Assembly: GCA_965202675.1 (NCBI GenBank)
Contig: OZ241842.1
Location: forward strand, 2,001,962 to 2,065,961
DNA: 64,000 nt
Reading direction: 5' to 3'
Source: Candidatus Spongiisociaceae bacterium
GTDB lineage: Bacteria > Actinomycetota > Acidimicrobiia > Spongiisociales > Spongiisociaceae
A model generated the notes under the pieces. The model was not told where the DNA came from. It was given only the letters and a program-made list of their open reading frames with translations, and made no database searches. This document shows, piece after piece, positions 37,262 to 60,869 of this stretch (within the stretch, counting starts at the first letter, position 1; the number at the start of each line of letters is the position of its first letter). Made by a program: the position numbers and the translations under genes.

Positions 37262-37370
37262 CCTGTTATGTGTTATAGCATATATTCAGGAGTCCTCGGA
37301 CCATTACGTTGGGCCCGAGCGTCCAAGCCGACCTCAGGGAAGTACATCCAAAGTTGTGCGGCGCTCGAAA

Positions 37371-37456
37371 TTCTAGGGAAAATACCTATAATCCAGCGCA
37401 AAGTTGGGATTTTTGCTAAGAATTTGCTAGTTTCTAGGGAAAATACCTGTAATTTG
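37371..37456. promoter_or_regulatory. Two 22-25-bp direct repeats (TTCTAGGGAAAATACCT[A/G]TAAT) each embedding a -10-like hexamer, in the divergent XRE/ATPase intergenic region
   Basis: Copies sit at about 37371-37395 (with a perfect TATAAT) and 37432-37456 (TGTAAT), spaced about 61 bp apart in an AT-rich region. Confidence 0.4.
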
Positions 37457-46259: not shown

Positions 46260-46952
46260 ATGGCCGGCGCTGCGGCCCGGACCCGGGAACCCTCCGCCGG
46301 CGCCGAACCGGATGCGCCCCCGTCCGCGCCTTCGCAAGCCCCCGCCCCGCCCCGTCTTCTGGTGCTGGCCTGCGGGGCGCTGGCGTCGGAAATCCTCTAT
46401 TTGATCAGGATCAACCGTTGGCGCCACATGACGCTGGACTGCCTGCCCGCCCGGTTGCACAACACGCCGGAGATGATTGCGCCGGAGCTGGAGAAGCGCC
46501 TCCGCACCCTGGCCGGCCGCTACGACCGGGTGCTGGTCGGCTACGCCGACTGCGGAACGGGCGGGCGGCTCGACGCCCTCATCGAGCGGTGGGATAACGT
46601 GGAGCGGATCCCCGGCGCCCACTGCTATGAGTTCTACGCCACCCCTCCAGTGTTCGCCGAGCTCCACGAAGCAGAGCACGGGACGTTCTACCTGACCGAT
46701 TTCCTCGCCCGCCACTTCGACCGCCTGGTGTGGAAATCGCTCGGACTCGACCGTCACCCCCAGCTCCGGGACGCCTATTTCGGCAACTACCGGCGGCTCG
46801 TCTACCTTTCTCAGTTCGACGACTCGGGGCTGGTTGCGCGGGCCGAGGAAGCGGCCCGCCGCCTGGGTCTCGAGTTCCATCACCGCCGGGTGGGGCTCGG
46901 GGACCTGGGAGGCGGCCTCCATCGTTTCGCCGCCGCGGCGGCGGACGGCTGA
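46260..46952 (+). CDS. DUF1638-domain protein (accessory protein of corrinoid methyltransferase clusters)
   Basis: LVLACGALASEI...GYADCGTGG matches the DUF1638 pattern. The call rests mainly on position in the cluster. Confidence 0.6.
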   Translation: MAGAAARTREPSAGAEPDAPPSAPSQAPAPPRLLVLACGALASEILYLIRINRWRHMTLDCLPARLHNTPEMIAPELEKRLRTLAGRYDRVLVGYADCGTGGRLDALIERWDNVERIPGAHCYEFYATPPVFAELHEAEHGTFYLTDFLARHFDRLVWKSLGLDRHPQLRDAYFGNYRRLVYLSQFDDSGLVARAEEAARRLGLEFHHRRVGLGDLGGGLHRFAAAAADG

Positions 46953-46958
46953 TTCGCC

Positions 46959-47375
46959 GTGTTGGAGGCGCCCGCTTCGAACGAGGCGGCCGACCATGCC
47001 GGCCGGCGCACCGCCGCCGCCCGCAACCAGAGGGTGCGTTCGGAGCTGGTAACGATCCTGTGGCGCGACATCCCCGCCCAGGTCACCGCCCGTTCGGGCC
47101 GGATCAAGAGCGCGGTGGAGCTGCCGCCCCGCTTCCAGTCGGCCATCGACCGGGCCGCCATGGTGGCGGGCAAGAACACCTACGACGCATATATAGAGGA
47201 GTGGCGGCGGACGTCGGCGCCGTGTGGAGAGGACGTAGAAGCCGAGGCGGCGGCGGCCGCCGCCCGGATCGAGCAGGAGTATCCGCCGGCCCGTTTGGCG
47301 CGGATGGCGGCCGGCGGCGGGTACGAGCCGCCTCCGGGCGGTCCGCCCGCCGGACCCGAAAAGGCGGGCCCGTGA
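46959..47375 (+). CDS. Small hypothetical protein conserved position in MttB-family clusters
   Basis: A 138-aa ORF whose stop overlaps the next start (GTGA). No domain recognised. Confidence 0.45.
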   Translation: MLEAPASNEAADHAGRRTAAARNQRVRSELVTILWRDIPAQVTARSGRIKSAVELPPRFQSAIDRAAMVAGKNTYDAYIEEWRRTSAPCGEDVEAEAAAAAARIEQEYPPARLARMAAGGGYEPPPGGPPAGPEKAGP

Positions 47376-48301
47376 CTGCGCCCCGCACGGTGGTGAGCTC
47401 GGCGGCTCGGGAGGTGGCGATCGGGCCGGATCAGCCCTTTGCGGTGATCGGAGAGCGGATCAACCCGACCGGGCGCAAGCTGCTGGCGGCCGAGATGAAA
47501 GAAGGCGACTACAGCCGGGTGGAGGCTGACGCCCTGGCCCAGGTGGCGGCGGGCGCCCACATGCTGGACGTCAACGCCGGCATCCCGCTGGCCGACGAAC
47601 CGGCCATCCTGGCCGAGGCGGTGCAGCTGGTGCAGTCCTTGGTGGACGTCCCCTTGTCCATCGACTCGTCGATAGTGGAGGCGCTGGAGGCGGGTCTGGC
47701 GGTGTACGAGGGCAAGGCCCTGGTGAACTCGGTGACAGGGGAGGAGGAGCGGTTGGAGCGGGTGCTGCCCCTGGCGGCGGAGTACGGAGCGGCGGTGGTG
47801 GCCATCTCCAACGATGAATCCGGCATCTCCGAGGACCCGGACGTGCGCTTCGAGGTGGCCGCCAAGATCGTGCACCGGGCCGCCGACTACGGCATCCCGC
47901 CCGAGGACGTGGTGGTGGATCCGCTGGTGATGCCGGTGGGGGCGATGCGGTACGCAGGCGCCCAGGTCTTCCATATTCTGCGCCGGCTGCGGGACGAGCT
48001 GGGGGTCAACTCCACCTGCGGCGCATCCAACATCAGCTTCGGCCTCCCCAACCGGCGCGGCATCAACAGCGCCTTCTTGGCCATGGCCATAGCCAACGGC
48101 CTCACCTCGGCCATCACCAACCCGCTGGAGTCCGAGATCGCCCACGCCGTGAAGGCCGCCGATGTGCTCACCGGCAACGACCGGGACTGTACGAACTGGA
48201 TACGCACCTTCCGAGAGCCGGGGGCCGAGGGCGAGGGGCGGGGCCGCCGACGGGGGGGCCGCCGCCGGGCCCGAGGCGAAACGCCGGGGGCGGGCCCATG
48301 A
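47372..48301 (+). CDS. Pterin-binding methyltransferase (methylcorrinoid:tetrahydrofolate methyltransferase, MtrH/MtqA/AcsE-like)
   Basis: The start is taken at GTG at residue 215 of ORF 46730-48301. Pterin-binding TIM-barrel motifs are present (VIGERINPTG, MLDVNAG, LSIDSS, ALVNSV). Confidence 0.8.
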   Translation: MTAPRTVVSSAAREVAIGPDQPFAVIGERINPTGRKLLAAEMKEGDYSRVEADALAQVAAGAHMLDVNAGIPLADEPAILAEAVQLVQSLVDVPLSIDSSIVEALEAGLAVYEGKALVNSVTGEEERLERVLPLAAEYGAAVVAISNDESGISEDPDVRFEVAAKIVHRAADYGIPPEDVVVDPLVMPVGAMRYAGAQVFHILRRLRDELGVNSTCGASNISFGLPNRRGINSAFLAMAIANGLTSAITNPLESEIAHAVKAADVLTGNDRDCTNWIRTFREPGAEGEGRGRRRGGRRRARGETPGAGP

Positions 48302-50379
48302 CCGGCGCGGCGGAGCGGTCGGTGCAGGTGGTGTTCACCCCCTCGGGAAGGCGGGGGCGGGTGAGGGCCGGAACCGCCGTCCTGGACGCGGCCCGCAGCC
48401 TGGGGGTGGACATCGACTCGGTGTGCGGAGGCCGGGGAATATGCGGGCGCTGCCAGATAATGCTGGGCGCGGCGGCGGGAGCGCCCTCCGCCGACGGCGC
48501 CCTTTCACCCCCCGGCCAGACGGAGATGGGCTATCGGAGCCGGCGCCGCCCCCTGCGGGAAGGCCACCGGCTCTCATGCGCCGCCCGGCTGCAGGGCGAC
48601 GCGGTTATCGACGTTCCCCCCTACAGCGCCGTGCACCGCCAAGTGGTGCGAAAACGGCCTGAGGCGGTGGACATTCCCGTGGATCCGGTGGTGCGCCTGC
48701 ACTACGTGGAGGTGGAACCCCCCGACATGCACAAGCAGGCCTCCGATCTGGCCCGGGTGCTCCAGGCGCTGGAAGGGCAGTGGGGGATCTCCGCAGAGGA
48801 GGTGGACCATCACGTGCTGGTCGGTCTGCAGGACGCCCTGCGGGAAGGCGGATGGAAGATAACGCTGGCGGTCCACGACGGGTCGGCGGTGACCGGGGTG
48901 TGGCCGGGCTTCTACGACGGTTCGGTCGGGGTGGCCATAGATGTGGGGTCGACCACCGTGGCCGGGCATCTCTGCGACCTTTCCACGGGTGAGGTGCTGG
49001 CCTCCACCGGGATGATGAACCCCCAGATCCGGTTCGGCGAGGACCTGATGAGCCGGGTTTCCTACGCGATGATGAACGAGGGGGGCGCGGAGGAGCTGAC
49101 CGGCGCGATACGGGAAGCCCTGGACCGGCTGGTGGGAGAGCTGGCGGAAGCGGCCGGGTCGGAGCGCGGCGCGGTGCTGGAGATCGCCTTGGTCGGGAAC
49201 CCCGTCATGCACCATCTGGTGCTGGGGATCGATCCGCGCCGTCTGGGGGTGGCGCCCTTCGCGTTGGCCACCGACGGGGCGGTCCGCATGGAGGCGTCGT
49301 CCGTAGGAATCGAGGCCCACCCCGGCGCCCGCCTCTACGTGCTTCCCTGCGTGGCGGGTCATGTGGGCGCCGACGCGGCCGGCGCCATGCTGTCGGAAGG
49401 CCCCCACCGCGGCCGGGACATCCAGCTGCTGGTGGACGTGGGCACCAACGCCGAGATTGTGTTGGGCAGCGCCGGGCGCCTGCTGGCCGCTTCCAGCCCC
49501 ACCGGTCCGGCCTTCGAAGGGGCCGAGATCGGTTCCGGGCAACGGGCCGCCCCCGGAGCGATCGAGCGGGTGCGCATCGACCGCCGCACCCTGGAACCCC
49601 GCTTCAGGGTGATCGGGGTGGATATGTGGTCGGACGAGGAGGGCTTCGAGGAGGCGGCCGCCGGTGCGGGGGTGACCGGGATATGCGGCTCGGGGATCAT
49701 CGAGGCGGTGGCCGAGCTGGCCCTGTCGGGGGTGGTGTCGGCGGACGGTCTGATCCTGGACACCGGACGGAGCAGGCGGGTGGCCGCGGACGGCCGCACC
49801 GCCTCCTACCTGCTGTACGAGGGGGGCTTGTCCGGCGGCGGGGGCGCCCGGATCGTCATCAGCCAGAACGACGTGAGGGCGATCCAGCTGGCCAAGGCGG
49901 CGCTCTACGCGGGGGTGCGGCTGCTCATGGATCGGCTGGGGGCGGCGGCGGTAGACGAAATCAGGCTGGCCGGCGCCTTCGGCAGCCATATCGATCCCAT
50001 ATATGCAATGGTTCTGGGCATGATCCCCGACTGCGACCCGGACAGGGTGTCGGCGGCGGGCAACGCGGCCGGCGCCGGAGCGATGATGGCCTTGCTGAGC
50101 GGCGCCGCCCGCCGGGAGGTCGAGGAGCTGGTGCGGCGGGTGGAGAAGATCGAGACGGCGGTGGCGTCCGATTTCCAGCAACATTTCGTGGAGGCGATGG
50201 CCATTCCCCATGCCGCCGCCCGCTTCGAGCAGCTGTCCGGCCGGGTGGACCTGTCGGGCATCGCGGCGGGGGACCCGTCTGCCGCCCGCCGCGGCCGCCG
50301 GTCGGGCCGGGCCGGTTCCGGGCGGGGCGGCGCCGGGGGCCGCCGTCCGGCGGCGGCCGCCCGAGAGGCGGCGGTGTGA
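48298..50379 (+). CDS. RamA-like corrinoid reductive activase (N-terminal 2Fe-2S ferredoxin + ASKHA ATPase domain)
   Basis: The N-terminal cysteines CGGRGICGRCQ are followed by a large ASKHA domain (GIAIDVGSTTVAG...LVDVGTNAEIV). Confidence 0.8.
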   Translation: MTGAAERSVQVVFTPSGRRGRVRAGTAVLDAARSLGVDIDSVCGGRGICGRCQIMLGAAAGAPSADGALSPPGQTEMGYRSRRRPLREGHRLSCAARLQGDAVIDVPPYSAVHRQVVRKRPEAVDIPVDPVVRLHYVEVEPPDMHKQASDLARVLQALEGQWGISAEEVDHHVLVGLQDALREGGWKITLAVHDGSAVTGVWPGFYDGSVGVAIDVGSTTVAGHLCDLSTGEVLASTGMMNPQIRFGEDLMSRVSYAMMNEGGAEELTGAIREALDRLVGELAEAAGSERGAVLEIALVGNPVMHHLVLGIDPRRLGVAPFALATDGAVRMEASSVGIEAHPGARLYVLPCVAGHVGADAAGAMLSEGPHRGRDIQLLVDVGTNAEIVLGSAGRLLAASSPTGPAFEGAEIGSGQRAAPGAIERVRIDRRTLEPRFRVIGVDMWSDEEGFEEAAAGAGVTGICGSGIIEAVAELALSGVVSADGLILDTGRSRRVAADGRTASYLLYEGGLSGGGGARIVISQNDVRAIQLAKAALYAGVRLLMDRLGAAAVDEIRLAGAFGSHIDPIYAMVLGMIPDCDPDRVSAAGNAAGAGAMMALLSGAARREVEELVRRVEKIETAVASDFQQHFVEAMAIPHAAARFEQLSGRVDLSGIAAGDPSAARRGRRSGRAGSGRGGAGGRRPAAAAREAAV

Positions 50380-51914
50380 ACGCCCGGCGGGGCCGCAGAG
50401 CCGGCGGCCGGGCGGCGCGCCAGGCGCAGCGGACGGCCCGCGTGATCGAGCAGCAGCCCTTCCTGGTCCGCAGGATCAGCCCCGCAGAGGTGCTGTCGGA
50501 GGAGGGCGTCGAGATCATCGAGCACAACGCCGACACCCTGCTCGAGGAGGCGGGCGTCGAGATCATGGACTATCCGGAGGCGCTGTCCATCTACGCCGGG
50601 GCGGGCGCCGAGGTGGACGGAACCAGGGTTCGTTTTCCCAGGGGCATGTGCCGGGAGCTCATAACCGCTTCGGCGCCGGAGGTGTTCACCCACCACGCCC
50701 GCAACCCGGAACGGTCGGTGTCGATCGGAGACCCGTACACGGTTTTCGCCCCCGCCTACGGACCGCCCTTCGTGCGGGACCTGGAAGGGGGCCGCCGCTA
50801 CGCCACCCTCGGGGACTTCGAGAACTTCGCCAAGCTGACCCACATGTCCCCGGCGCTCCACCACGGCGGAGGGACCCTGTGCGAGCCGGTGGACCGCCCG
50901 GTCAACAAGCGCCACTACGACATGATCTACTCCCATGTCGTCTACCACGACAAGCCGTTCATGTCGTCCGTTACCCAGCCCGAACGAGCCCAGGACTCGG
51001 TGGATATGGCCAAGATCGTGTTCGGCGGGGACTTCGTGCAGAACAACACGGTCCTGATCGGCCTCTGCAACGCCAACTCCCCGATGACCTGGGACCTCGC
51101 CATGCTGGGATCGGCCAAGGTGCTGGCCGAGAACAACCAGTGCGCCCTGATAACCCCGTTCATCGTCGCCGGGGCCATGTCGCCGGTTACGGTGGCGGCT
51201 ACCGCAACCCAGACCCTGGCCGAGGCGATGGCGGGTATGGCCTTCACCCAGATCGTCCGGCCCGGCGCTCCGGTCATATTCGGCTCGTTCGCCGCTTCGA
51301 TGTCGATGCAGAGCGGCGCCCCCACCTTCGGAACCCCGGAGACGGCCTTGGTGCTGGGATCGGTCAAACAGCTGGCGGTGCGGCTGGGGGTGCCGTTCCG
51401 ATCGGGCGGCGCCCTGACCGCCTCCAAGATTCCAGACGCCCAGGCGGCCTATGAAAGCATTATGACCCTTCTGCCCGCGGTCGGGGCCGGCGTCAACTTC
51501 GTTCTGCACTCCGCCGGATGGCTCGAGGGCGGCCTCACGATGGGTTACGAGAAGTTCGTTCTCGACGCAGATCAGGCCTCAATGATGAACCGGCTGACGG
51601 GCGGGGTGGATCTGAGCGAGAACGGCCTGGCGTTGGAGGCCTTGCTGACCAACGGCCCCGGCGGGCATTTCCTGGGCGCCGAACACACCATGGAGAACTT
51701 CGAACAGGCATTCTGGGTGTCGGAGTTGGCCGATGCGGACAGCTTCGAGCAGTGGGAGATCGACGGCGCCCTTGATTCCATCGACCGGGCCAACCGGAAA
51801 TGGAAGCAGATGCTGGCCGAATACCAGCCGCCGCCGCTCGATCAAGCGGTGCACCAGGAGCTGACCGAGTGGATCGCCGCCCGCAAGGCCTCGTTCCCCG
51901 ACTCCGATTACTGA
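50376..51914 (+). CDS. Non-pyrrolysine MttB-superfamily methyltransferase (quaternary amine:corrinoid methyltransferase, MtgB/MtcB-like)
   Basis: This 512-aa TIM-barrel MttB-family protein has no in-frame TAG, so it belongs to the non-Pyl clade. It starts at GTG overlapping the ramA stop. Confidence 0.8.
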   Translation: MNARRGRRAGGRAARQAQRTARVIEQQPFLVRRISPAEVLSEEGVEIIEHNADTLLEEAGVEIMDYPEALSIYAGAGAEVDGTRVRFPRGMCRELITASAPEVFTHHARNPERSVSIGDPYTVFAPAYGPPFVRDLEGGRRYATLGDFENFAKLTHMSPALHHGGGTLCEPVDRPVNKRHYDMIYSHVVYHDKPFMSSVTQPERAQDSVDMAKIVFGGDFVQNNTVLIGLCNANSPMTWDLAMLGSAKVLAENNQCALITPFIVAGAMSPVTVAATATQTLAEAMAGMAFTQIVRPGAPVIFGSFAASMSMQSGAPTFGTPETALVLGSVKQLAVRLGVPFRSGGALTASKIPDAQAAYESIMTLLPAVGAGVNFVLHSAGWLEGGLTMGYEKFVLDADQASMMNRLTGGVDLSENGLALEALLTNGPGGHFLGAEHTMENFEQAFWVSELADADSFEQWEIDGALDSIDRANRKWKQMLAEYQPPPLDQAVHQELTEWIAARKASFPDSDY

Positions 51915-52029
51915 TGGGCTGCTCGAAGGCGTTCGTGCGGTTGCGGCGGAGGGCCTGCTCCTTCTTCCCGGCCCGGATCGGGGGAACCGTCCGCCTCCGC
52001 CCTCTCGGGCCGCCCCTCTAGGGCAGGGC

Positions 52030-52884
52030 GTGGCAGGCCGCCGGCGCCGCCTCGACGGATTCGCCAGAGCCGCCCTCCGGCGGGCTCTGGAAACCCCCAA
52101 ATTCGAGGTGCTTCCCCTCAAAGGAGTGCTGGACCAGGCGGGGATCCTGCCGGAGGGGGCGCAGGTGTCGGTTACCGCCTCTCCTACCAAGACCATGGAA
52201 GACACCATGAACCTGGCCGCCGACCTGCGGCAGCAGGGGTTCGACGTGATACCGCACCTGTCGGCCCGCATGACCCACGACCGGTCGCATCTGGCCTCGC
52301 TCCTGCGGCGGATGGAGGACCTGGAGATATCCCGGGTTTTCGTGGTGGGGGGAGACGCTTCCCAGCGGGGGGATTTCCGGGATTCCTTCTCCTTGCTGCT
52401 GGCCATGGAGGAGATGGGGCACCACCTGACCGAGCTGGGGGTTACGGCCTACCCGGAGGGGCATTCTCTGATATCGGACGACCTGCTGCGGCAGGATCTG
52501 CACAACAAGCAGCCCTACGCCGCCTATATGACCACCCAGATGTGCTTCGACGGGAGGGCCATCGCCGATTTCTTGGCCGGATGCCGGGCCGACGGCGTTT
52601 CCCTGCCGGCGCGGATTGGGATTCCGGGGGTGGGCGACCGGCTGAAGTTGATGAGAATATCTACCCGGATCGGGGTGGGGCAGTCGGTGCGGTTCCTCAC
52701 CAAGCACCGGGGGATGCTGGGGAGGTTCATCCGTCCGGGCGGCTACACACCCGAGGACCTGTTGAGGAGCCTCGCCCCGGTCTTCGCCGCCCCGGAGGCC
52801 GCCGTCATCGGGGTGCATATCTACACTTTCAACCAGTGCGAGACCACCGAGCGGTGGCGGCAGGAGTACCTGGAGAGCCTGTAG
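52030..52884 (+). CDS. metF: 5,10-methylenetetrahydrofolate reductase
   Basis: The MetF fold is present (SVTASP...VIPHLSAR...VFVVGGD...). Length is 284 aa. Confidence 0.8.
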   Translation: MAGRRRRLDGFARAALRRALETPKFEVLPLKGVLDQAGILPEGAQVSVTASPTKTMEDTMNLAADLRQQGFDVIPHLSARMTHDRSHLASLLRRMEDLEISRVFVVGGDASQRGDFRDSFSLLLAMEEMGHHLTELGVTAYPEGHSLISDDLLRQDLHNKQPYAAYMTTQMCFDGRAIADFLAGCRADGVSLPARIGIPGVGDRLKLMRISTRIGVGQSVRFLTKHRGMLGRFIRPGGYTPEDLLRSLAPVFAAPEAAVIGVHIYTFNQCETTERWRQEYLESL

Positions 52885-52936: not shown

Positions 52937-54691
52937 ATGACCAGCCCCTCATCCCCGGAAGGCCCGGCCGCCCGGTTCGACGACCGGCGCGGCGGCGGCG
53001 CCTTGGAGCTGCGCGATCCCTACCGGGTGCTTGTTGCCTTCCGGTCCGACCAGGCGGCGGATGTGATCGCCGAGGCCGAGGCCGAGGCCCGTTCGGGCGG
53101 CTGGGTGGCCGGGTGCGTCGCCTACGAGGCGGCCCCCGCCTTCGACCGCGCCCTGACGGTCCGCCCGCCCGGCTCCGACCTGCCCCTCGCCTGGTTCGCG
53201 GCCTTCCGGACGGCGGCGCCCGAACCCGCCCGGCGGGGCGGGCCGTACCGTACGGCTCCTTGGCGGCCCGAGATATCCGAGGCCGGGTACATGGAGGACG
53301 CGGCCGCCGTACAGGAACTGATCGCGGCGGGCGACACCTACCAGGCCAACTACACGTTTCGCCTGCGGGGAAGGGTGGAGGGCGACCTGCGGTCCGTCTA
53401 CGCCGATCTGCTCGACGCCCAGGGCGGCGGCCACCACGCCTACCTGGAGACGGGAAACCGCACGGTGGTATCCGCCTCGCCCGAGCTGTTCTTCCGCTGG
53501 GACGGCAGGCGGATAGAGACCAGGCCCATGAAGGGGACCGCCGCCCGCGGACGCTGGGAGCAGGAGGACCGGGCCAACCGGGAGCGGCTGCTGTCGTCCG
53601 GGAAGGACCGGGCCGAGAACGTGATGATCGTCGATCTGTTGCGCAACGACCTGGGAAAGGCCGCCCGGTTCGGAACGGTCGGAGTTGAGCGCCTGTTCGA
53701 GATCGAACGGTTCGAGACGGTCTGGCAGATGACCTCGACGGTGGCCGCCGAAACCCGGCCCGGAGTGGGCCTGTTCGACATCTTCGCCGCCATGTTTCCG
53801 TGCGGTTCGGTCACCGGCGCCCCGAAGGCGAGGACCATGGAGATCATCTCCGATCTGGAGGCTTCCCCGCGGGGCGTCTACTGCGGGGCGATCGGGTTGC
53901 TCGCCCCGCCGGGGTCGGGGCGCCCCCGGGCCGAGTTCTCGGTGGCGATCAGAACCCTGGTCGTCGACGGGCGGGACGGCTCGGCCGAGTACGGGGTGGG
54001 CGGCGGGGTGGTGCACGAGTCCGTGGCGGCCGAGGAATACCGGGAGGCGATGGTCAAGGCAAGGGTGCTGCATCGCCGCAGGAAACCCTTGACGCTGCTG
54101 GAGACGATGCGCTGGGACCCGGAAACGGGGGTATGGCTGCTCGACCGTCATATGGACCGCCTCCGCTCCTCCGCCCGCTACCTGGGCGTCGAGCTTCCCG
54201 AAGCGGAGATCCTCGCCCTGATCGAGGGCGTCGGGGGCGTCCGCCCGTTGCGGATCCGGTTGCTGGTGCCGGAGGCCGGGCCGCCGCGCCTCGAAGCGGC
54301 GCCGCTGGCCGTCCTGCCCCCGGCGGCGGGCCTCGCCCTGGACGACCGTCCGGTCGACCGCTCCGACTTCCTCCGTTACCACAAGACCACCCGCCGGGGC
54401 CCCTACGAGGCGGCGGCGGCCCGGCATCCGGAGGCCGACGACGTGGTGCTGGTCAACGACCTCGGCGAGGTGGTGGAGACCACCGTCGCCAACCTGGCCG
54501 TGCGGCTCGGGGAGGAGTGGTTGACCCCGCCCCTGGAAGCCGGATGCCTTCCCGGCGTCTACCGGGGAGAGCTTCTCGACCGGGGCCTTCTGATCGAACA
54601 GCCGGTGCCGATAGACGCCCTTCTAGCAGCCGACGAAATCGCAGTGCTCAACTCGGTTCAGGGCCGCCGGTCCGCCAAGCTGCTCGGTTAG
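52937..54691 (+). CDS. pabB: Aminodeoxychorismate synthase component I fused to aminodeoxychorismate lyase (PabB-PabC)
   Basis: Chorismate-binding domain motifs are present (PELFF...RPMKGTAARG...NVMIVDLLRNDL...FPCGSVTGAPK). The C-terminal roughly 200 aa form a class-IV aminotransferase-like PabC domain. Confidence 0.8.
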   Translation: MTSPSSPEGPAARFDDRRGGGALELRDPYRVLVAFRSDQAADVIAEAEAEARSGGWVAGCVAYEAAPAFDRALTVRPPGSDLPLAWFAAFRTAAPEPARRGGPYRTAPWRPEISEAGYMEDAAAVQELIAAGDTYQANYTFRLRGRVEGDLRSVYADLLDAQGGGHHAYLETGNRTVVSASPELFFRWDGRRIETRPMKGTAARGRWEQEDRANRERLLSSGKDRAENVMIVDLLRNDLGKAARFGTVGVERLFEIERFETVWQMTSTVAAETRPGVGLFDIFAAMFPCGSVTGAPKARTMEIISDLEASPRGVYCGAIGLLAPPGSGRPRAEFSVAIRTLVVDGRDGSAEYGVGGGVVHESVAAEEYREAMVKARVLHRRRKPLTLLETMRWDPETGVWLLDRHMDRLRSSARYLGVELPEAEILALIEGVGGVRPLRIRLLVPEAGPPRLEAAPLAVLPPAAGLALDDRPVDRSDFLRYHKTTRRGPYEAAAARHPEADDVVLVNDLGEVVETTVANLAVRLGEEWLTPPLEAGCLPGVYRGELLDRGLLIEQPVPIDALLAADEIAVLNSVQGRRSAKLLG

Positions 54692-54837
54692 CTGTGCTTC
54701 CCATGGACGTGGTTGACAGTTTTGGCGGCGGGGTGGCAGGCCGCCCCCGGACGGTCGACCTTCGACCCCGGTCCCCTTGATCACGGGAGGAGCCCTCCGG
54801 GCCGTTGTAGGAGCATATCGTCAGGTGTACGCAACAC

Positions 54838-55608
54838 GTGGAAGGGGAGAGCGGGTCCCTTGCGGAACCGGGCTCTCCCCGGGTAGAATTGTTTGCTCTG
54901 CAACAGTATAGCAGGAAAATGACCGCATTGGAAGCACCGCATCTGGTCATCGGCCGACTGCGCGACTACTTCGCGCGCAGAACCAACTGGCAACGCCGAC
55001 TCTGGAATCCAGGAACCGTCACTGTACTACAGGAGACTTTGGAAGCGGTTCAGCTACTTGAGGGTGAACAAGTCGCTCTAGATGGGTAGCTCCAAGGTTG
55101 CCATGACTAGAAAGGGTATATAATCATAGTTTAGATTGATTACAAAGCATATGATAACCAGGATGATGACGAATGAGCCGCTTAGCTCGGCTCCTCGGCG
55201 ATTGGGCTGTGCCTGTAATCGGCGTGTTTCCGCGGTTGGTCGGCGGAAACAAAACCCTTATCCCTTGGAACTACCCATCTAGGGGCCGTTGAAGCCTTGG
55301 CGAGAACAGCGGAGCGGCGAGCTGGACCGGATTCTGGGATTGGTACTACGGCTAAACGAAAGGCTATCACCGAGACCCTCCGTAAGGTAAGCAAAAGCCA
55401 GATGGTCAGGTATCAGTTTGAGTATCTCCTCCGGGGGGTTGGTGATGGTTACCTGCAACGTTGGTCGGAGAAACTGAGGGACCAGCCAGATAAGATCAAG
55501 ACCGAAGAGGCTTCACGATTAGTGGCGGGGCACCTACTCGGTCTAGGTTTCAGCCCCGATAAGCTCCATCGGTGGTCAACTTGGCTATATAGGCAAAGAC
55601 AGCCCTAA
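54838..55608 (+). pseudogene. Small ORF (~185 aa, unknown function) interrupted in frame by a MITE-like element
   Basis: ORF 54838-55089 stops at the TAG inside the left TIR. ORF 55297-55608 resumes in the same frame. Removing 55078-55278 rejoins them as ...EGEQVAL/GAVEALARTAE.... Confidence 0.45.
55078..55282. mobile_element. MITE-like 205-bp nonautonomous element with 20-bp terminal inverted repeats (CTAGATGGGTAG[C/T]TCCAAGG) and CTAG/TA target duplication
   Basis: The ends are near-perfect inverted repeats (1 mismatch). The interior is AT-rich and non-coding, and the insertion is in frame in the host ORF. Confidence 0.55.
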
Positions 55609-55963
55609 ACGCTAGCAGATCTATTCGAGGAAGCCGAAGCCTTGGCGCGTTCAAGGAAGGCCGAGTGGGTGGTGTTTATCCCGTTCCGAGCCCTTGGGCG
55701 GCATGGCCAAACAATGCCAGACGAGTGGCTTGACCTAGGATAGGCGAGCCGATGGTTGTTAGATCATGTTGGAAGTGTCAAAATACGGTCACTGATCTGG
55801 TTGCTCTTTATGGTATTGGCTGAAACCAACTCTCTCTTCATGCCTTCAAGTACGGGCAGATGCGGTTGCCAATGGGTGGGATGGCTCGTTGCCGAGGGTA
55901 GCCTTGCCCCCGCTGGTGGTTTCATCCTTGAGAAACCTTACGGTTTTAAGGTCCGGTCCCGGT

Positions 55964-57274
55964 TCAACCAAGGGGCAGGGGCGGATGGTCGGGTTGGGGC
56001 AGTCCGGGGCCCCATAGGCCGGCGATCGGGGCGGCTTCTACGCCGCGGTCGAGCTCGTACCGGTGCGGCCCGGTGTGGAATAGCACTCCGCCGTGGAAGC
56101 GGTCTCCGGCTACTTTGTCCCGGAACCAGATCAGGTGGCGGGCATCCGACCGGGTGGGGGCGCGGCCGGCCTTGAACTCGAAGGCGAAGAGCTTCATTCC
56201 GCGCTCGGCCACCAGGTCGATCTCGCGGTCTCCGTTGGCGGTGCGGAGGTGGTACAGCCGCACCCTTCCGTCCGCTTCGGCCTCCACCCGGAGCTGGGCC
56301 GTTATGAAGGTGTCGAGCATCCGGCCCCTCAGATCGGCATCGGAATAGACATCGTCGACGGTCAGATTCAAGGCGGCGCAGGCCAGGCCGGGGTCGGTGA
56401 ACTGGCGCTTGACCCGGTCGACCAGCAGGCGTTTCTGCCGGTTGCCGGTCCAGGGAGGGAGCTCGTCGACAATCCCGAGCGTTGTCAAGGCGTAGAGGTA
56501 GCCGTTGGCGGTGCGTTGGTCGATCCCGACCCGCCCGTGGATGGTCGAGTGCGGTGCCACCCCCGCGGTGTTGAGGGCGTAGGATTCCATGTAGGAGCGG
56601 AAGAGCCGGGCGTCCTTGGGCCGGCCGGTGTCGGCGGCCAGCGAGCGCAGGTCGCGATTGACTATGGCCTCCGAATAGGAACGGAGCCATTGCGCCCGCT
56701 CGCGGCCACCCGGTATTGCGATGGCCTCGGGGAAACCGCTCGCCAGAGCTGTCTCGAGGTACTCGCGCAGTCCGGGCGGGTCGGCGGGTACGCTGAACCG
56801 CCGGTCTCGGTCGTTCCACCGCTCGAACAAGGACGGGGCCGCCGCCGACCCGAAGCGTTCCCGCCCCGTGATGCCCCAGAGGCGTTGACGGACGAGCCTG
56901 CCCGTGCCCGGCCACATATCGGTCAGCAGGTCGTTGCGGGCCGAACCCGTCACGATGAACCTTCCGGGGGCCGGATGGTCGTCGACCTTTCGCTTCACCG
57001 CCCTCAGGACATCGGGGACCAGCTGCCATTCGTCGATCAACAAAGGGGGTTGCCCGGTTGCCGCCGCTATGGGGTCGGCCCGGCACAGGTCCTGATCGTC
57101 GGGGTCGTCGAGGCGCAGCTGCGACGCCGAGAACTCGAGGCCGGTGCGGGTCTTTCCGGCAGCTCGCGGGCCGGTGATGAGCATCCCCGGGAAGTTGTCC
57201 AGGCCCGTTCGGAGGGCGCGGTCGATTATGCGCGGGCGGTACGGCCTCGCACCGGGCGCGTCGTCACCCGGCAT
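55964..57274 (-). CDS. AAA_14/DUF4143-family ATPase (paralog of 37498-39546)
   Basis: It has a Walker A motif (ITGPRAAGKTRT) and a DUF4143-like C-terminal part. Length is 436 aa. Confidence 0.7.
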   Translation of the reverse strand: MPGDDAPGARPYRPRIIDRALRTGLDNFPGMLITGPRAAGKTRTGLEFSASQLRLDDPDDQDLCRADPIAAATGQPPLLIDEWQLVPDVLRAVKRKVDDHPAPGRFIVTGSARNDLLTDMWPGTGRLVRQRLWGITGRERFGSAAAPSLFERWNDRDRRFSVPADPPGLREYLETALASGFPEAIAIPGGRERAQWLRSYSEAIVNRDLRSLAADTGRPKDARLFRSYMESYALNTAGVAPHSTIHGRVGIDQRTANGYLYALTTLGIVDELPPWTGNRQKRLLVDRVKRQFTDPGLACAALNLTVDDVYSDADLRGRMLDTFITAQLRVEAEADGRVRLYHLRTANGDREIDLVAERGMKLFAFEFKAGRAPTRSDARHLIWFRDKVAGDRFHGGVLFHTGPHRYELDRGVEAAPIAGLWGPGLPQPDHPPLPLG

Positions 57275-57299
57275 GAACTCGAACCAAGCAGTTCATGCG

Positions 57300-57560
57300 C
57301 TTCCTGGCCTCATGGTTCATGTATCTCCCGCATGGCGGTTCGTGCGGCTCTGGCATGGTAGTTTATGCTTCTCCCGCATAGTAGTTTATGCATCTGCGGC
57401 ATGGTGGTTCATGTATCTCTCGCATGGCGGTTCGTGCGGCTCTGGCATGGTAGTTTATGCTTCTCCCGCATAGTAGTTTATGCATCTGCGGCATGGTGGT
57501 TCATGTATCTCTCGCATGGCGGTTCGTGCGGCTCTGGCATGGTAGTTTATGCTTCTCCCG
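57300..57560. repeat. Tandem array: ~11 abutting copies of a degenerate 23-bp unit (CATGGNGGTTYRTGYNTCTSNSG), organised as ~2.8 copies of a 92-bp higher-order repeat
   Basis: The 92-bp block recurs at about 57365, 57457 and partly at 57549. It lies between the divergent ATPase (-) and FAH (+) genes. The units abut with no spacers. Confidence 0.8.
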
Positions 57561-57649
57561 CACGTGTGGCCCCGCCCGCCGCCTCCTTCTTTCGACCGGT
57601 GGCCGTTCCTATACAATCACCGCCCGGACGAGCAGGAAGGAAATCAAAG

Positions 57650-58477
57650 ATGAGGATAGGCAGGTACAGGGCCGGGGCGGAGGAGGGTTGGGGTTTCGTG
57701 TCGGCTGACGCAATCCGCCCGGCGGTCGGCGGACCGGACCTGACGGAGGTGCTGGGAGACCCCGCCGCCCTTGCCGGTCTGGCCGGGCAGGCCGGCGCCG
57801 AGATACCGCTCGGCGGAGTCGATCTGCTGGCGCCGCTTCCCAATCCGCCCCAGTTCCTGGGCATCGGCCTCAACTACCGGGGTCATGCCGCCGAGTCGGG
57901 CGCCCCGGTGCCGGAATCGCCGGTGAGCTTCGCGTTCTTCAACTCCTCGATTACCGATCCGGGCGCCGCCGTTCGGTTGCCTCCTTTTACCGACCAGGTG
58001 GACTGGGAGGTCGAGCTGGGGGTGGTGATCGGACGAGAGGCCTGTTGCGTGCCGGTGGAAGAGGCGCTTGATTACGTGGCGGGGTATGTGATCGTGAACG
58101 ACCTTTCGGCGCGGGACATCCAGTTCGCCGAGGCGCAATGGACCCGCGCCAAGTCGTTCGACACCTTCAAGCCGATGGGTCCCTGGATTGTCTCCGCCGA
58201 CGAGCTGGGCGCAGCCGACGACCTCGATGTGAAGCTGTGGGTGAACGACGAGCTGAAGCAGTCGGGCAACACTTCCGATCTGGTCTTTGATGTACCCACC
58301 CTGGTCTCCCACATGTCGCAGCACCTGACGCTGGGGGCGGGGGCGGTGATCTCGACCGGCACCCCGGCCGGAGTGGGAATGGGCCGCAAACCCCCCGAGT
58401 ACCTGGCGCCGGGAGACGTAATGACCCTGGAAATCGAGGGCATCGGCAGGATCACCAACCCAGTAGAGTCCGCCTAG
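57650..58477 (+). CDS. Fumarylacetoacetate hydrolase (FAH)-family protein
   Basis: The start is taken at MRIGRY (residue 96 of ORF 57365-58477), which has an AGGAAGGAAA RBS. FAH-fold motifs are present (GLNYRGHAAE, DWEVELGVVIG, TGTPAGVG). The stop codon lies inside the repeat that begins at 58474. Confidence 0.8.
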   Translation: MRIGRYRAGAEEGWGFVSADAIRPAVGGPDLTEVLGDPAALAGLAGQAGAEIPLGGVDLLAPLPNPPQFLGIGLNYRGHAAESGAPVPESPVSFAFFNSSITDPGAAVRLPPFTDQVDWEVELGVVIGREACCVPVEEALDYVAGYVIVNDLSARDIQFAEAQWTRAKSFDTFKPMGPWIVSADELGAADDLDVKLWVNDELKQSGNTSDLVFDVPTLVSHMSQHLTLGAGAVISTGTPAGVGMGRKPPEYLAPGDVMTLEIEGIGRITNPVESA

Positions 58478-58540
58478 ATGGGTAGTTCCAAGGGATAAGG
58501 GTTTTGTTTCCGCCGACCAACCGCAGAAACACCCAGAACC
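58474..58540. repeat. Third copy of the MITE terminal sequence (52 bp identical to the reverse complement of 55232-55283, ~65 bp similar), inverted relative to the 55232-55283 copy
   Basis: CCTAGATGGGTAGTTCCAAGGGATAAGGGTTTTGTTTCCGCCGACCAACCGC matches the MITE right-end interior. No partner TIR is seen downstream. Confidence 0.5.
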
Positions 58541-58607
58541 GAGTGATTCGTTCCTGCGGGCTCCTTTGTGATTCCCACCAGATCTTTATATATGGTAACT
58601 CAGTTAT

Positions 58608-58853
58608 ATGGATGGGATATATGCTGTTGTGATGGGAGACAGAGGCCGGATCGTGGTGCCCGCCGCGGTGCGCGAACGCGCCGGGCTCTCTGCAGGCACT
58701 CCGTTGGTGGTGGTCGAATCTTCCGAAGGCCTGATTCTGTTGACGCGGGAGCAGCTGCGGGCGCGTATTCGGGATGAGCTGAGCAGCGCTGATCTGGTGG
58801 GGCAACTTCTCGCGGATCGACGGCGGGCGTCCGTACGGGAGGATGCCGGATGA
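58608..58853 (+). CDS. AbrB/MazE/SpoVT-family DNA-binding protein (VapB-like antitoxin), no cognate toxin adjacent
   Basis: VMGDRGRIVVPAAVRERAGLSAGTPLVVV is a swapped-hairpin SpoVT_AbrB motif. The next gene is a dehydrogenase, not a toxin. Confidence 0.55.
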   Translation: MDGIYAVVMGDRGRIVVPAAVRERAGLSAGTPLVVVESSEGLILLTREQLRARIRDELSSADLVGQLLADRRRASVREDAG

Positions 58854-58929
58854 GCATCGCGCATGATGCCGGGTGCGCCGCCGGAAGAGTGGAACAGATC
58901 CGTTGACCGACGCAACCGGCGCAGGGCTT

Positions 58930-59895
58930 ATGAGGGTCGGTTTCATCGGGCTCGGCAACCTGGGCGCAAAGCTGGCGGGGAGCCTGTTGCGCAACGGCTG
59001 CCGGCTGGCGGTCCGCGACCTCGACCGGGCGGCGGCCCGGCCCCTCCTCGAGGCCGGCGCCGAATGGGCCGGCACCGGCCGCGATCTGGCCCGGCGCAGC
59101 GGCCTGGTCGTTACCTGCCTACCGTCGCCGTCCGCGGTGAGGTCGGTCATGGAAGGGGATGAGGGGGTGCTGGCCGGCCTGGGGCCGGGCAAGCTCTGGC
59201 TGGAGATGAGCACCACCGACGAGGCCGAGGTCCGGCGGCTCGGCCGCCTGGCCGCGGAGTCCGGCGCCGGACCGCTGGACGCCCCCGCGTCGGGAGGCTG
59301 CCACCGGGCGGCGACCGGGAACATATCGATCTTTGTCGGCGGCGAGCGGGAGGATTTCGAAAAGGCGCTTCCGGTCCTCGCCGTCATGGGGCGGCGGATA
59401 CTGCACACCGGGCCGCTGGGGTCCGCATCGGTGCTGAAGGTGGTGACCAACTACCTGGCCTCGGTGCATCTGGTCGCGCTGGGGGAGGCGATGATGACCG
59501 CCCGGCGGGCCGGAATCGACCTCGCCGCCGCCTTCGAGGCGATCCGCATCAGCTCCGGCAACTCGTTCGTCCACGAGACCGAATCCCAGGTGATCCTCAA
59601 CGGCAGCTGCGACATCGGCTTCACGATGGACCTGGTGGTGAAGGACATGTCGCTGTTCCAACAGCTCGCCGACCGGCAGGGAACCCCGCTCGAGCTGTCG
59701 CCGCTGGTGCTCGACATCTTCCGCCGGGGCGAGCGGATCTACGGTTCCCGGGCCTGGTCGCCGGGGATCGTGCGCCTTCTCGAGGACGCCTGCGGGGTGG
59801 AGCTGCGGGCGCCGGGCTTCCCGTCGGAGCTCGTCGACGCGGAGCCGGAGGAACCGGGCTGCGAGGTGTTTCCCGCCCCGACGCAGCGGACGTGA
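58930..59895 (+). CDS. NAD(P)-dependent oxidoreductase, 3-hydroxyisobutyrate dehydrogenase (HIBADH) family
   Basis: The start is taken at MRVGFIGLGNLGAKLA, a Rossmann GxGxxG motif. The HIBADH-family C-terminal domain is present. Confidence 0.75.
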   Translation: MRVGFIGLGNLGAKLAGSLLRNGCRLAVRDLDRAAARPLLEAGAEWAGTGRDLARRSGLVVTCLPSPSAVRSVMEGDEGVLAGLGPGKLWLEMSTTDEAEVRRLGRLAAESGAGPLDAPASGGCHRAATGNISIFVGGEREDFEKALPVLAVMGRRILHTGPLGSASVLKVVTNYLASVHLVALGEAMMTARRAGIDLAAAFEAIRISSGNSFVHETESQVILNGSCDIGFTMDLVVKDMSLFQQLADRQGTPLELSPLVLDIFRRGERIYGSRAWSPGIVRLLEDACGVELRAPGFPSELVDAEPEEPGCEVFPAPTQRT

Positions 59896-59897
59896 GG

Positions 59898-60869
59898 TCA
59901 TTCGGCGGGAGCGTCCAGCTGTCCTTCCCAGTGGTAGCCCCAGCAGATTATGCGGCCTTCGCCGTTGATTGCGCAGGTGTGGAAGTAGCCGGCTGACAGG
60001 GCGGTGTATCGGTCTGCCGGGGCGTCGGCCTGCCCGGCTTGGTTTGCCCCCCAGCAGGCGGCGGCGCCATCGGGGCGGAGAGCGCAGGTGTGGGCGCCGC
60101 CCGCCGATACGGCGGCGAAAGGTTCCTCCGGGGCGTCGGCCTGGCCGTCCTCGTTCTTGCCCCAGCAGGTTATGCGGCCTTCGCCGTTGATTGCGCAGGT
60201 GTGGAAGTAGCCGGCTGACAGGGCGGTGTATCGGCCTGCCGGGGCGTCGGCCTGCCCGTGTTGGTTGCTTCCCCAGCAGGCAATGCTTCCGTCCGGACGC
60301 AGGGCGCAGCTGTGTCGGCCTCCGGCGGCCAGGGCGGCGAAGCTTCCCGCCGGCGGCGCCGTCTGGCCGTAGAGGTTGCTTCCCCAGCAGGCGGCCGCCC
60401 CGCTGCCGTCCAGAGCGCAGGTGTGGCCGTCGCCCGCCGATACCGCCCGGTAGGAACCCTCGGGAGGCTCCGACTGTTCGTCCCAGTTGCTTCCCCAGCA
60501 GGCGATTGATCCGTCGGTGCGTATTCCGCAGCTGTGCAGCGTCCCGGCGGCCGCTTCGGTGAAGGTTCCGGCGGGCGGGTCCGACTGGCCGAGGCTGTTG
60601 TTCCCCCAGCAGGCAGCCCCGCGGCCGGTCCGCAGGACGCAGGAATGCAGCCCGCCGGAGGTCAGGGAGCCGAACCCGGCGAACCCGTCCGGCTCGCCGG
60701 ACGGCGCCGGGTCCGAGGCGGTTTGCGCGGGGGCCGAAGCAGGGGCGGGGTCCGGGCCGACGCCGTTTCCGCAGGCCGCCGCCGACAGGGCCAGGGCCGC
60801 GGCCACCAGCGCCGCCGCCGTCCGTCCGGCCGGCGTTGCCGGCGGGAGCGGGGCCGATAAATCAGACAA
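59898..60869 (-). CDS. RCC1-repeat (regulator of chromosome condensation-like beta-propeller) lipoprotein
   Basis: The signal peptide ends in a lipobox (LSAAAC). About six repeats have the form HSC/HTCAL...DGS..CWG.N..GQ. The gene contains a 98-bp near-identical internal duplication. Confidence 0.75.
   Translation of the reverse strand: MSDLSAPLPPATPAGRTAAALVAAALALSAAACGNGVGPDPAPASAPAQTASDPAPSGEPDGFAGFGSLTSGGLHSCVLRTGRGAACWGNNSLGQSDPPAGTFTEAAAGTLHSCGIRTDGSIACWGSNWDEQSEPPEGSYRAVSAGDGHTCALDGSGAAACWGSNLYGQTAPPAGSFAALAAGGRHSCALRPDGSIACWGSNQHGQADAPAGRYTALSAGYFHTCAINGEGRITCWGKNEDGQADAPEEPFAAVSAGGAHTCALRPDGAAACWGANQAGQADAPADRYTALSAGYFHTCAINGEGRIICWGYHWEGQLDAPAE

Follow-up and report, generated by a model that had tools for sequence, protein, structure and literature searches.

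What does a row of abutting 23-bp direct repeats do between two divergently transcribed genes, and to which of the two does it belong? The locus that raises this question lies in a 64,000-nt stretch of DNA from a Candidatus Spongiisociaceae bacterium (contig OZ241842.1), called here the window, in which such an array separates the gene of an ATPase with a DUF4143 domain from a gene of the FAH family. Among relatives of the ATPase, the repeats are conserved together with their position, orientation, period and a shared core, and the ATPase gene is the only one to which they are linked. The units could be understood as iteron-like operator or assembly sites, for which the predicted binder is the ATPase itself, acting through a winged helix and controlling its own promoter; judged from the sequence comparisons described below, we regard this as a somewhat probable account.

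The array and the gene it accompanies

The array occupies positions 57288-57560 and consists of 12 head-to-tail units of ~23 bp, 10 of which have the exact length. Its parts and the two flanking genes are the following.

57331..57560, minus strand: ten full 23-bp direct-repeat units (Tandem Repeats Finder, repeat search, motif scan and unit alignment)
57311-57330 and 57288-57310, minus strand: two degenerate gene-proximal units (sequence, alignment of u11/u12 and a permissive Tandem Repeats Finder run)
57313..57562, no strand assigned: 92-bp block of four units, present 2.7 times at 99% identity (Tandem Repeats Finder)
55964..57274, minus strand: gene of the 436-aa AAA_14 + DUF4143 ATPase-nuclease, PADLOC candidate PDC-S01 (Pfam, PADLOC, homologues and AlphaFold2, AF2)
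57650-58477, plus strand: FAH-family gene, with its start at 57650 and not 57651 (Pfam)

Tandem Repeats Finder (TRF) reported a period of 23 bp with 10.7 copies and 71% matches at 57313-57557, and a period of 92 bp with 2.7 copies, 99% matches and a score of 493 at 57313-57562; a permissive run counted 12 copies, and a repeat search recovered nine in-register copies at exact 23-bp spacing. The motif CATGGYRGTTYRTGC, with at most two mismatches, was matched at 10 places inside the array and at a single other place of the 64 kb, that is, 11 times compared to 0.91 expected for the whole window, a count reached by 0 of 100 shuffles. On the ATPase-sense strand, the units follow the consensus CGGGAGAnGCATGAACTACCATG, with eight invariant columns in the 12-unit alignment. 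Four unit variants (A-D) alternate to form the 92-bp block, and its 99% identity points to a recent block duplication. The unit nearest but one to the ATPase gene (57311-57330) is degenerate and only 20 bp long, owing to a 3-bp deletion. The GC content of the array region is 0.53-0.62, compared to ~0.69 in the surroundings, with a minimum around the array of 0.53, and the array is strongly AT-skewed, its sense strand being A-rich. No inverted or second copy of the units is present on either strand of the 64-kb window.

The preliminary description of this DNA had proposed about eleven abutting 23-bp repeats, arranged as copies of a 92-bp unit, directly upstream of the ATPase start in a divergent promoter region. 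TRF and the unit alignment agree on this layout, with 11-12 units and ~2.7 copies of the 92-bp block, and Pfam matches bear out the divergent DUF4143 ATPase and FAH flanks. The array does lie within the ATPase promoter region, since it ends 13 bp from the ATPase ATG (gap 57275-57287), and its other end is 89 bp from the FAH ATG. That it is not a clustered regularly interspaced short palindromic repeat (CRISPR) array also stands: the units abut at exact 23-bp spacing and have none of the unique spacers of similar length found in CRISPR arrays.

A homology search returned 581 homologues of the ATPase at E <= 1e-10. Only a few of them are named; these belong to Acidimicrobiia and include members of Poriferisodalis, a genus associated with sponges. 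In some genomes, two copies are present. For neither the ATPase nor FAH did an exact-sequence look-up find a protein, and P0001, the representative of a near-identical cluster, was used instead. In the three nearest homologues, with 100%, 93% and 84% identity (L001-L003), the same 23-bp units are found immediately upstream of the start codon. The contigs of L001 and L002 end inside the array, which is the usual behaviour of short-read assemblies at tandem repeats. In L003, a MazE/PIN toxin-antitoxin pair takes the place of FAH on the array side, and the DNA beyond this pair matches positions 58572-59777 of the window. As L003 keeps the array and the ATPase gene without FAH, FAH is not part of the unit. 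A syntenic orthologue, L007, is located on a 3.19-Mb Spongiisociaceae chromosome (OZ251535.1) in the order FAH - array - ATPase - pabB; its flanks show 79-89% nucleotide identity to the window, its ATPase 70% protein identity, and its array has 14.9 units of 24 bp. Collectively, we can conclude that the array belongs to the ATPase gene and not to FAH, the former being the sole gene that is consistently linked to it. The earlier suggestion that the copy number could set the promoter geometry of both genes is not supported: the link to FAH is incidental, as the MazE/PIN pair beside the array and ATPase gene of L003 illustrates. FAH also has its own 89-bp upstream sequence with a good ribosome-binding site.

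A copy number that varies between relatives (~3 to 15 units) agrees with the preliminary description, and the 92-bp block points to recent expansion. Among close relatives the range is ~3.4 to 15 units, and across relatives 2.5 to 15. Typical arrays hold 2.5-5 units, and the largest are those of L007 (15), the window (12) and L010 (8). Multi-unit blocks are also present in L010 (46 bp, 3.9 copies at 100%) and L080 (46 bp, 2.4 copies at 100%). In Joint Genome Institute (JGI) metagenomes, a scan for the gene-proximal junction AAGCGCATGAACTGCTTGGTTC gave 0 matches, and a protein-based scan found no close relatives, only proteins with 21-28% identity. Several genomes (OZ242297.1, OZ246894.1 and CAZHMP01) contain two or more ATPase paralogues, and tandem paralogues exist, as is shown by the end of another DUF4143 gene (...IEAVPICGLWG*) immediately upstream of the match at L013.

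The possibility that the array is coding sequence was rejected, since 23 and 92 are not divisible by 3 and the extension is blank in Pfam. An open reading frame (ORF) at 57365-58477 crosses the array in the FAH frame, and its part before the FAH start (57365-57649), which runs through the array, gave no match in a Pfam scan. The FAH protein is complete from 57650, its N-terminal Rv2993c-like domain included. An RNA gene at the array was likewise rejected, on the grounds of 0 Rfam matches at E <= 1 on both strands of 54500-58000, RNA folding no better than that of shuffles (z = -1.9 and -0.45), and the absence of tRNA and transfer-messenger RNA (tmRNA) in an ARAGORN search. The preliminary description had itself named an invariant copy number and translation within a longer protein as observations that would speak against it; both were looked at, and neither was found. 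An 18-codon upstream ORF (uORF; 57264-57320, minus strand) starts at the ATG of unit 11 behind GGGAG, encodes MNHEARKRMNCLVRVHAG* and stops 8 nt past the ATPase ATG, an overlap that could serve translational coupling. A-type units farther up, inspected by eye, also open short ORFs (MNHHAADA*).

The 23-bp period and the promoter across the family

The upstream regions of the ATPase family were compared in a genome set of one genome per species, with 80 further loci at 43-74% identity from Acidimicrobiia, Solirubrobacterales, Pseudonocardiaceae, Glycomyces, Kineosporia and some proteobacterial metagenome-assembled genomes. With default settings, TRF reported period-23 arrays (some with 24, 46 or 47) just before the gene in 26 of 83 loci. 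Default TRF misses many degenerate arrays, and the autocorrelation lag with controls is more informative; this threshold-free statistic picks, from lags of 8 to 60, the one with the highest number of self-matches over the 200 bp upstream. The following results were obtained.

Genome loci, upstream 200 bp: best lag 23, 24, 46 or 47 in 49/78
Genome loci, five control regions: best lag 23, 24, 46 or 47 in 1, 2, 4, 4 and 8 of 73-83
First nine plasmid homologues, 23-45% identity: top lag 22, 23 or 46 in 8/9
Seven further plasmid homologues: lag 22-23 in Bacteroides ovatus, Sulfitobacter and Brucella at both window sizes of the scan, and weakly in Rhodoferax
IMG/VR homologues, 27-31% identity, non-redundant: lag 23, 24 or 46 in 19/21, and in 0/21 of the in-gene controls

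Homologues on plasmids amount to 262 records, and those with arrays span five phyla; the first nine come from Mycobacterium riyadhense, Rhizobium, Azotobacter, Thermus, Agrobacterium, Collinsella, Allochromatium, Roseivivax and Moraxella. The array of Bacteroides ovatus, which consists of three near-perfect copies of AAGCCAAACTGCCGAATAATATT, is unique among the 72,556 plasmids of PLSDB. The tandem 23-bp array is a hallmark of one large branch of the family. This subfamily can be defined by units of 22-24 bp that follow one another head to tail at least ~2.5 times in the orientation of the gene, the last of which ends at the -35 element or no more than ~40 nt from the start codon, and the window shows this layout with its 12 units ending 13 bp from the ATG. 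The group at 47-50% identity (Poriferisodalis and relatives) shows the 23/24-bp signal weakly or not at all.

The unit sequences vary widely between loci, as exemplified by GGTACTCAGGGCTGCGGGAGAAA, CCCGCAAAAGCGGTAGTGATTAG, TGGTCCAAAGCGCTATCAAAAAA and AGTGTCGAAAACCGCTAGTAACA, and unit classes such as TGGTCCAAAGCGCTA and CCGCAAAAGCGG can be distinguished. A cyclic alignment of 58 unit consensuses yielded a common core, T...C.AAA..GC.A...AA, of 9.4 bits, compared to 6.5 bits on average and 6.8 at most in 20 shuffles of the consensuses. In the listed unit consensuses, the A-rich strand is the sense strand. The window unit fits the core (TGCCAGAGATGCATGAAC...), and when written as TGCCAGAGATGCATGAACCACCA it lines up with the units of L039, L063, L065 and L070; this alignment was made by eye, the automatic rotation having placed the window clade differently. 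On the evidence of the alignment, the units are homologous across the family, with a sequence that drifts and a period that is kept.

The position of the array was also compared with that of promoter elements. Of 81 genome loci, 48 have a TANNNT hexamer 5-8 nt before an in-frame ATG or GTG that lies near the conserved N-terminal region, compared to 2% of shuffles. This signature is that of leaderless actinobacterial genes. As judged by eye in the loci inspected, the hexamer falls within the last array unit, where ..CGGTAnnn.. becomes ..GGTATCGT.. or ..GCTATTAT... In AT-rich relatives, a sigma-70-like promoter follows directly after the last unit (TTGCAA-17-TATAAT in L113 and TTGATA-17-TATACT in L103), which places the array at roughly -35 to -130. 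A phase-variable promoter spacer, as put forward earlier, is unlikely, because the units of relatives are located upstream of or at the -35/-10 elements and not between them. Contingency loci are built of 1-9 bp units in frame or between the -35 and -10 elements, and the unit here has 23 bp. In the window's clade, the units carry GGGAG and then ATGAAC, resembling a Shine-Dalgarno sequence and an ATG. Gene callers start several homologues at the ATGAACTAC of the unit, which results in MNY... N-termini, and the gene call of P0029 has five MNYPDELG repeats at the N-terminus. A sigma-70 scan of 56900-57900 detected no promoter, only weak, repeat-internal terminator-like matches.

Distant DUF4143 relatives from metagenomes (L131-L202, 21-28% identity) lack the 23-bp array. 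Of 57 loci, 25 have a best lag of 32-34, and several loci show by eye a palindrome pair, for instance TTCGGTTTGAACCGAA, ~32 bp apart beside the promoter. The window itself contains a second AAA_14/DUF4143 paralogue (37498-39546, plus strand; 29% identity, ORF to 682 aa), in whose AT-rich upstream region (37368-37450) two 22-bp copies of TTCTAGGGAAAATACCT[A/G]TAAT lie 61 bp apart and do not abut. Repeated elements at the own promoter seem to be general in the DUF4143 superfamily, and repeats at the promoters of the distant relatives would be expected if the whole superfamily binds its own promoter.

The predicted binder and rival explanations

By its domains and motifs, the ATPase is a member of the PDC-S01/DUF4143 family. 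It matches PF13173 (E = 2.4e-11) and PF13635 (E = 5.9e-30, above its cut-off) in Pfam and PDLC04790 in PADLOC (E = 5.9e-84), with residues 12-422 aligned to profile positions 11-419 of 422. DUF4143 has been listed as a PD-(D/E)XK family (PMC3424549), and the architecture of PDC-S01 is that of an ATPase fused to a PD-(D/E)XK domain (PMC12988326). The AF2 model, with a pLDDT of 84.9, comprises an AAA+ part (~17-215), a winged helix (~222-292) and a C-terminal alpha/beta domain (295-421). The latter two correspond to the following features.

56399..56611, minus strand: predicted winged-helix domain, residues ~222-292 (RTAxxY helix and W..NRxKRL wing)
56012..56392, minus strand: C-terminal PD-(D/E)XK nuclease-like domain, residues ~295-421 (conserved D353 ... 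E366-x-K368)

In an alignment of 32 homologues, Walker A (GPRAxGKT) and Walker B (LLIDEWQ) are intact and conserved, and E351, D353, E366 and K368 are invariant or nearly invariant. In the winged helix, the recognition helix RTAxxY is conserved, with T255 and Y259 invariant, as is a basic wing, W275 ... N-R282-x-K-R ... K289-R290. Moreover, variants of the recognition helix go with unit classes in the homologues. The fold is related to that of STAND and Orc/Cdc6 ATPases, with SSO1545 among the best fold matches. A profile search of the ATPase (A1) against PDB sequences gave insignificant matches only, and NCBIfam has no model for it.

These features lead to a proposal in which the array is a cis-acting row of sites, one per ~23 bp (~2.2 helical turns), that are all oriented with the gene and end at or inside the ATPase core promoter. 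ATPase-nuclease protomers would be arranged side by side along the repeats, probably in a cooperative and nucleotide-dependent manner. At 23 bp per protomer, and assuming 10.5 bp per turn, successive proteins would be rotated by ~70 degrees, with 5-6 of them per turn. Binding would control transcription of the ATPase's own gene, for which negative feedback is the favoured mode, keeping a potentially toxic nuclease at a low level, and it might also nucleate the ATPase oligomer. The 12 units of the window would represent an expansion of the usual 3-5 by recent duplication of a 4-unit block. Linkage to one gene, the kept period, the single orientation, the common core, the contact with the promoter and the lack of further copies all suggest iteron-type sites. 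The iteron-like character recognised in the preliminary description is retained in this proposal, as abutting direct repeats of about two helical turns stand beside the gene of a likely DNA-binding protein.

Several points weigh against operator sites bound by the ATPase. We infer the binder, from linkage only, as well as the effect of binding. In STAND-like ATPases, the winged helix often has a structural role and does not bind DNA, and the co-variation of recognition helix and unit class could be confounded by shared descent. The 23-bp signal is absent in 29 of 78 genome loci, about a third, and 3 of the 7 further plasmid loci show no trace of it. In the window's own clade (L001-L007), there is no recognisable -10 element or leaderless start, and the array could be situated inside a transcribed leader in this clade. 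Furthermore, 12 units are far more than the 3-5 that seem to suffice elsewhere, and part of the array may be neutral expansion.

Other explanations have to be weighed against autoregulation by the ATPase. The repeats could be a platform for assembly and not an operator, on which the ATPase-nuclease oligomerises in a resting or sensing state of defence, with a secondary effect on transcription; DnaA oligomerises on its boxes, and Orc1 on origin recognition box (ORB) elements. This would suit the 23-bp period, kept across phyla despite the drift of the sequence, the number of 3-5 units plus the promoter unit, which is about the size of an AAA+ oligomer, the relationship of the fold to STAND and Orc/Cdc6 ATPases oligomerising on ligands or DNA, and the match of the protein to the defence candidate PDC-S01. 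However, the array always touches the promoter, which is directly explained by autoregulation, the data at hand fit both readings alike, and the defence role of PDC-S01 is itself only a candidate one (PMC12988326). A pure platform appears unlikely. We consider it quite unlikely that the array is an unstable promoter duplication, that is, a copy-number switch in which slippage-prone promoter copies tune expression without a dedicated binder. Such a switch could account for the 99% identity of the 92-bp copies and the 100% identity of the blocks in L010 and L080, for the 2.5 to 15 copies among relatives, for the breaks of the L001 and L002 contigs in the array, and for the resemblance of the units to the -10 region (CGGTAnnn) of a real promoter. 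Neutral copies, however, would not keep a period of 22-24 bp, an orientation and a core from Bacteroidota to Actinomycetota, and the extra units are located upstream of the promoter, leaving the -35/-10 spacing unchanged. A host-factor site or structural element, with phased A-tracts acting as curved DNA or as an UP-like, nucleoid-protein or RNA polymerase site, is very unlikely. It would be consistent with A-rich units of strong AT skew on the sense strand, a family core built on AAA and AA runs, and the position immediately upstream of -35 in AT-rich relatives, but the element follows one gene family through five phyla with differing nucleoid proteins, clade-specific non-A positions are conserved within arrays, and the second DUF4143 paralogue in the window has a different upstream repeat.

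The possibility that the array of the window's clade is part of the ATPase mRNA, acting via uORFs or RNA structure, is no more convincing. The GGGAG..ATG of the A-type units, the 18-codon uORF overlapping the ATPase start codon, the missing -10 or leaderless signature in L001-L007 and the homologue calls beginning with MNY... would fit a transcribed leader; most window units, however, have ATA or ACG and not ATG, no Rfam match was found, the folding z scores were -1.9 and -0.45, and elsewhere in the family homologous units are upstream of the promoter and so outside the mRNA. Most improbable of all would be iterons of a replication origin, a partition centromere or a mobile-element end. Plasmid iterons, parC-type centromeres and the right end of Tn7, with its four abutting 22-bp TnsB sites, share this geometry; in addition, homologues are frequent on plasmids, and the ATPase-array-FAH segment lies between the two arms of a 65-bp inverted repeat. 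On the other hand, there is no Rep, Par or transposase gene nearby, the DnaA-box pattern TTWTNCACA has 0 matches in the 64 kb, and no Pfam family of partition nucleoside triphosphatases (NTPases) or centromere adaptors was found among the ORFs scanned at 46.7-63.6 kb. Likewise, the window has no second, inverted unit copy, the locus shows chromosomal synteny with L007, and the 65-bp inverted repeat is missing from relatives that still carry the array. A replication origin was rejected for want of a DnaA box, and a Tn7-like or mobile end for want of a second unit copy on either strand and in view of the synteny with L007. The replication or partition role considered in the preliminary description can accordingly be set aside, the context being chromosomal and metabolic.

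PDC-S01 ranks fourth in frequency among defence systems across prokaryotes, with ~29,500 bacterial and 10,000 archaeal instances, and is an abundant candidate without a validated function or mechanism (PMC12988326). The conserved, clade-specific array of 22-24 bp units offers the first concrete molecular handle on this family. It predicts that the ATPase is a sequence-specific DNA binder, with specificity given by the recognition helix and with control of its own gene, and that paralogues within one genome are insulated by different repeat sequences. A bolder idea, which we hold to be improbable, is that the array is a DNA-encoded part of PDC-S01, on which the ATPase-nuclease forms a filament or ring in cis, with one protomer per 23 bp, as a sensor or safety catch. 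The complex on self-DNA would be released or remodelled when infection alters topology, transcription or competing DNA, and PDC-S01 would then be a two-part "protein plus cognate repeat array" system. In practical terms, gene callers often place the ORF start within the final repeat, the arrays interrupt short-read assemblies, and defence annotation based on protein only misses part of the locus. The array of the window is an unusually expanded example (12 units) with a fresh 92-bp duplication, and is well suited to the study of array dynamics.

The neighbourhood of the locus shows some further features. The arms of the 65-bp inverted repeat pair (55219-55283 and 58473-58537) are 95% complementary, 98% over 60 bp, and 3189 nt apart, with a partial third copy at 55078-55097. 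The pair encloses a low-GC stretch, the ATPase gene, the array and FAH, with its right arm starting at the stop codon of FAH. A hairpin (GTTTCCGC ... GCGGAAAC) is present in both arms. At the syntenic L007 the pair is absent; candidate explanations for it are a terminator in shared use, a small mobile repeat and the two ends of a segment that can invert. The low-GC stretch (54700-55960, ~1.27 kb), between a pabB-like gene and the ATPase stop, has a GC content of 0.47-0.57 compared to ~0.69 around it, and gave no Pfam match among the ORFs tested and no Rfam or tRNA match. It is missing from L007, and L001 diverges from the window inside it (~55787). On the other side, positions 58572-58855 show 84% identity to the MazE-antitoxin region of L003, whose following PIN toxin gene has no counterpart, and the FAH gene of the window sits between this MazE-like remnant and the array; the remnant may derive from a decayed toxin-antitoxin pair. 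An RCC1-repeat protein with 7 RCC1_2 repeats (59898-60869, minus strand) accounts for a coding TRF repeat of 111/222 bp at 59937-60392. A methyltransferase cluster at 46730-52884 encodes a pterin-binding protein, a RACo-type corrinoid activase, an MTTB-family methyltransferase (trimethylamine/glycine-betaine) and an MTHFR-like protein, and shows that ordinary chromosomal metabolism surrounds the locus.

Comparison with known systems

Plasmid iterons, such as those of R6K pi, F RepE, pPS10 RepA and P1 RepA, are likewise abutting direct repeats of ~22-23 bp in one orientation, with a clade-specific sequence and a fixed period, next to the gene of their binder, binding being predicted here. The repeats of the window are within the range of 17-23 bp tandem direct repeats that is typical for plasmid iterons. 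Plasmid Rep initiators bind iterons via winged-helix domains and autoregulate their own gene. In contrast to these systems, the protein here is an AAA+/STAND-like ATPase with a PD-(D/E)XK nuclease and not a Rep_3-type initiator, and the locus has no Rep gene, DnaA box or AT-rich unwinding element, the GC content never falling below 0.53. It is chromosomal and is accompanied by a second paralogue in the window; its metabolic flanks and the synteny with chromosome OZ251535.1 are not those of an autonomous replicon.

The parC arrays (R1 ParR-parC and pSK41 parC) are also tandem direct repeats, which overlap the promoter of the binder's operon; the role of binder is predicted here for the ATPase. 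The par repeats are known for cooperative coating and autorepression. However, ParR is a small ribbon-helix-helix adaptor that works with an actin-like motor, the unit length there is 10-20 bp, and no adjacent NTPase and adaptor genes of this kind are present at the locus.

The closest protein logic is found in Orc1/Cdc6 with ORB boxes and in STAND regulators with direct repeats, and the array is a member of neither. The STAND regulators (MalT boxes, SARP/AfsR repeats and mycobacterial IniR) are signal-transducing ATPases that control transcription by oligomerising on repeated promoter boxes, but their targets are other genes, and they possess sensor repeats as well as separate DNA-binding domains of the LuxR or OmpR type. 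The ATPase described here, in comparison, has an internal winged helix as its only candidate reader and a nuclease as effector, and no site other than its own promoter is known for it. SSO1545, one of the best fold matches, is mentioned in the IniR paper (PMC5760070). With respect to PDC-S01, the ATPase of the window matches the hidden Markov model (HMM) almost end to end, and its neighbourhood is metabolic and not a defence island. Upstream repeats are not mentioned with DUF4143, PF13635, COG1373 or PDC-S01 in the full-text literature, subscription journals being outside this coverage, nor are repeats mentioned in the paper introducing the PDC candidates. What is new here is most likely the attachment of a putative iteron- or operator-type array to an AAA+-nuclease defence candidate, with related arrays in many bacterial phyla.

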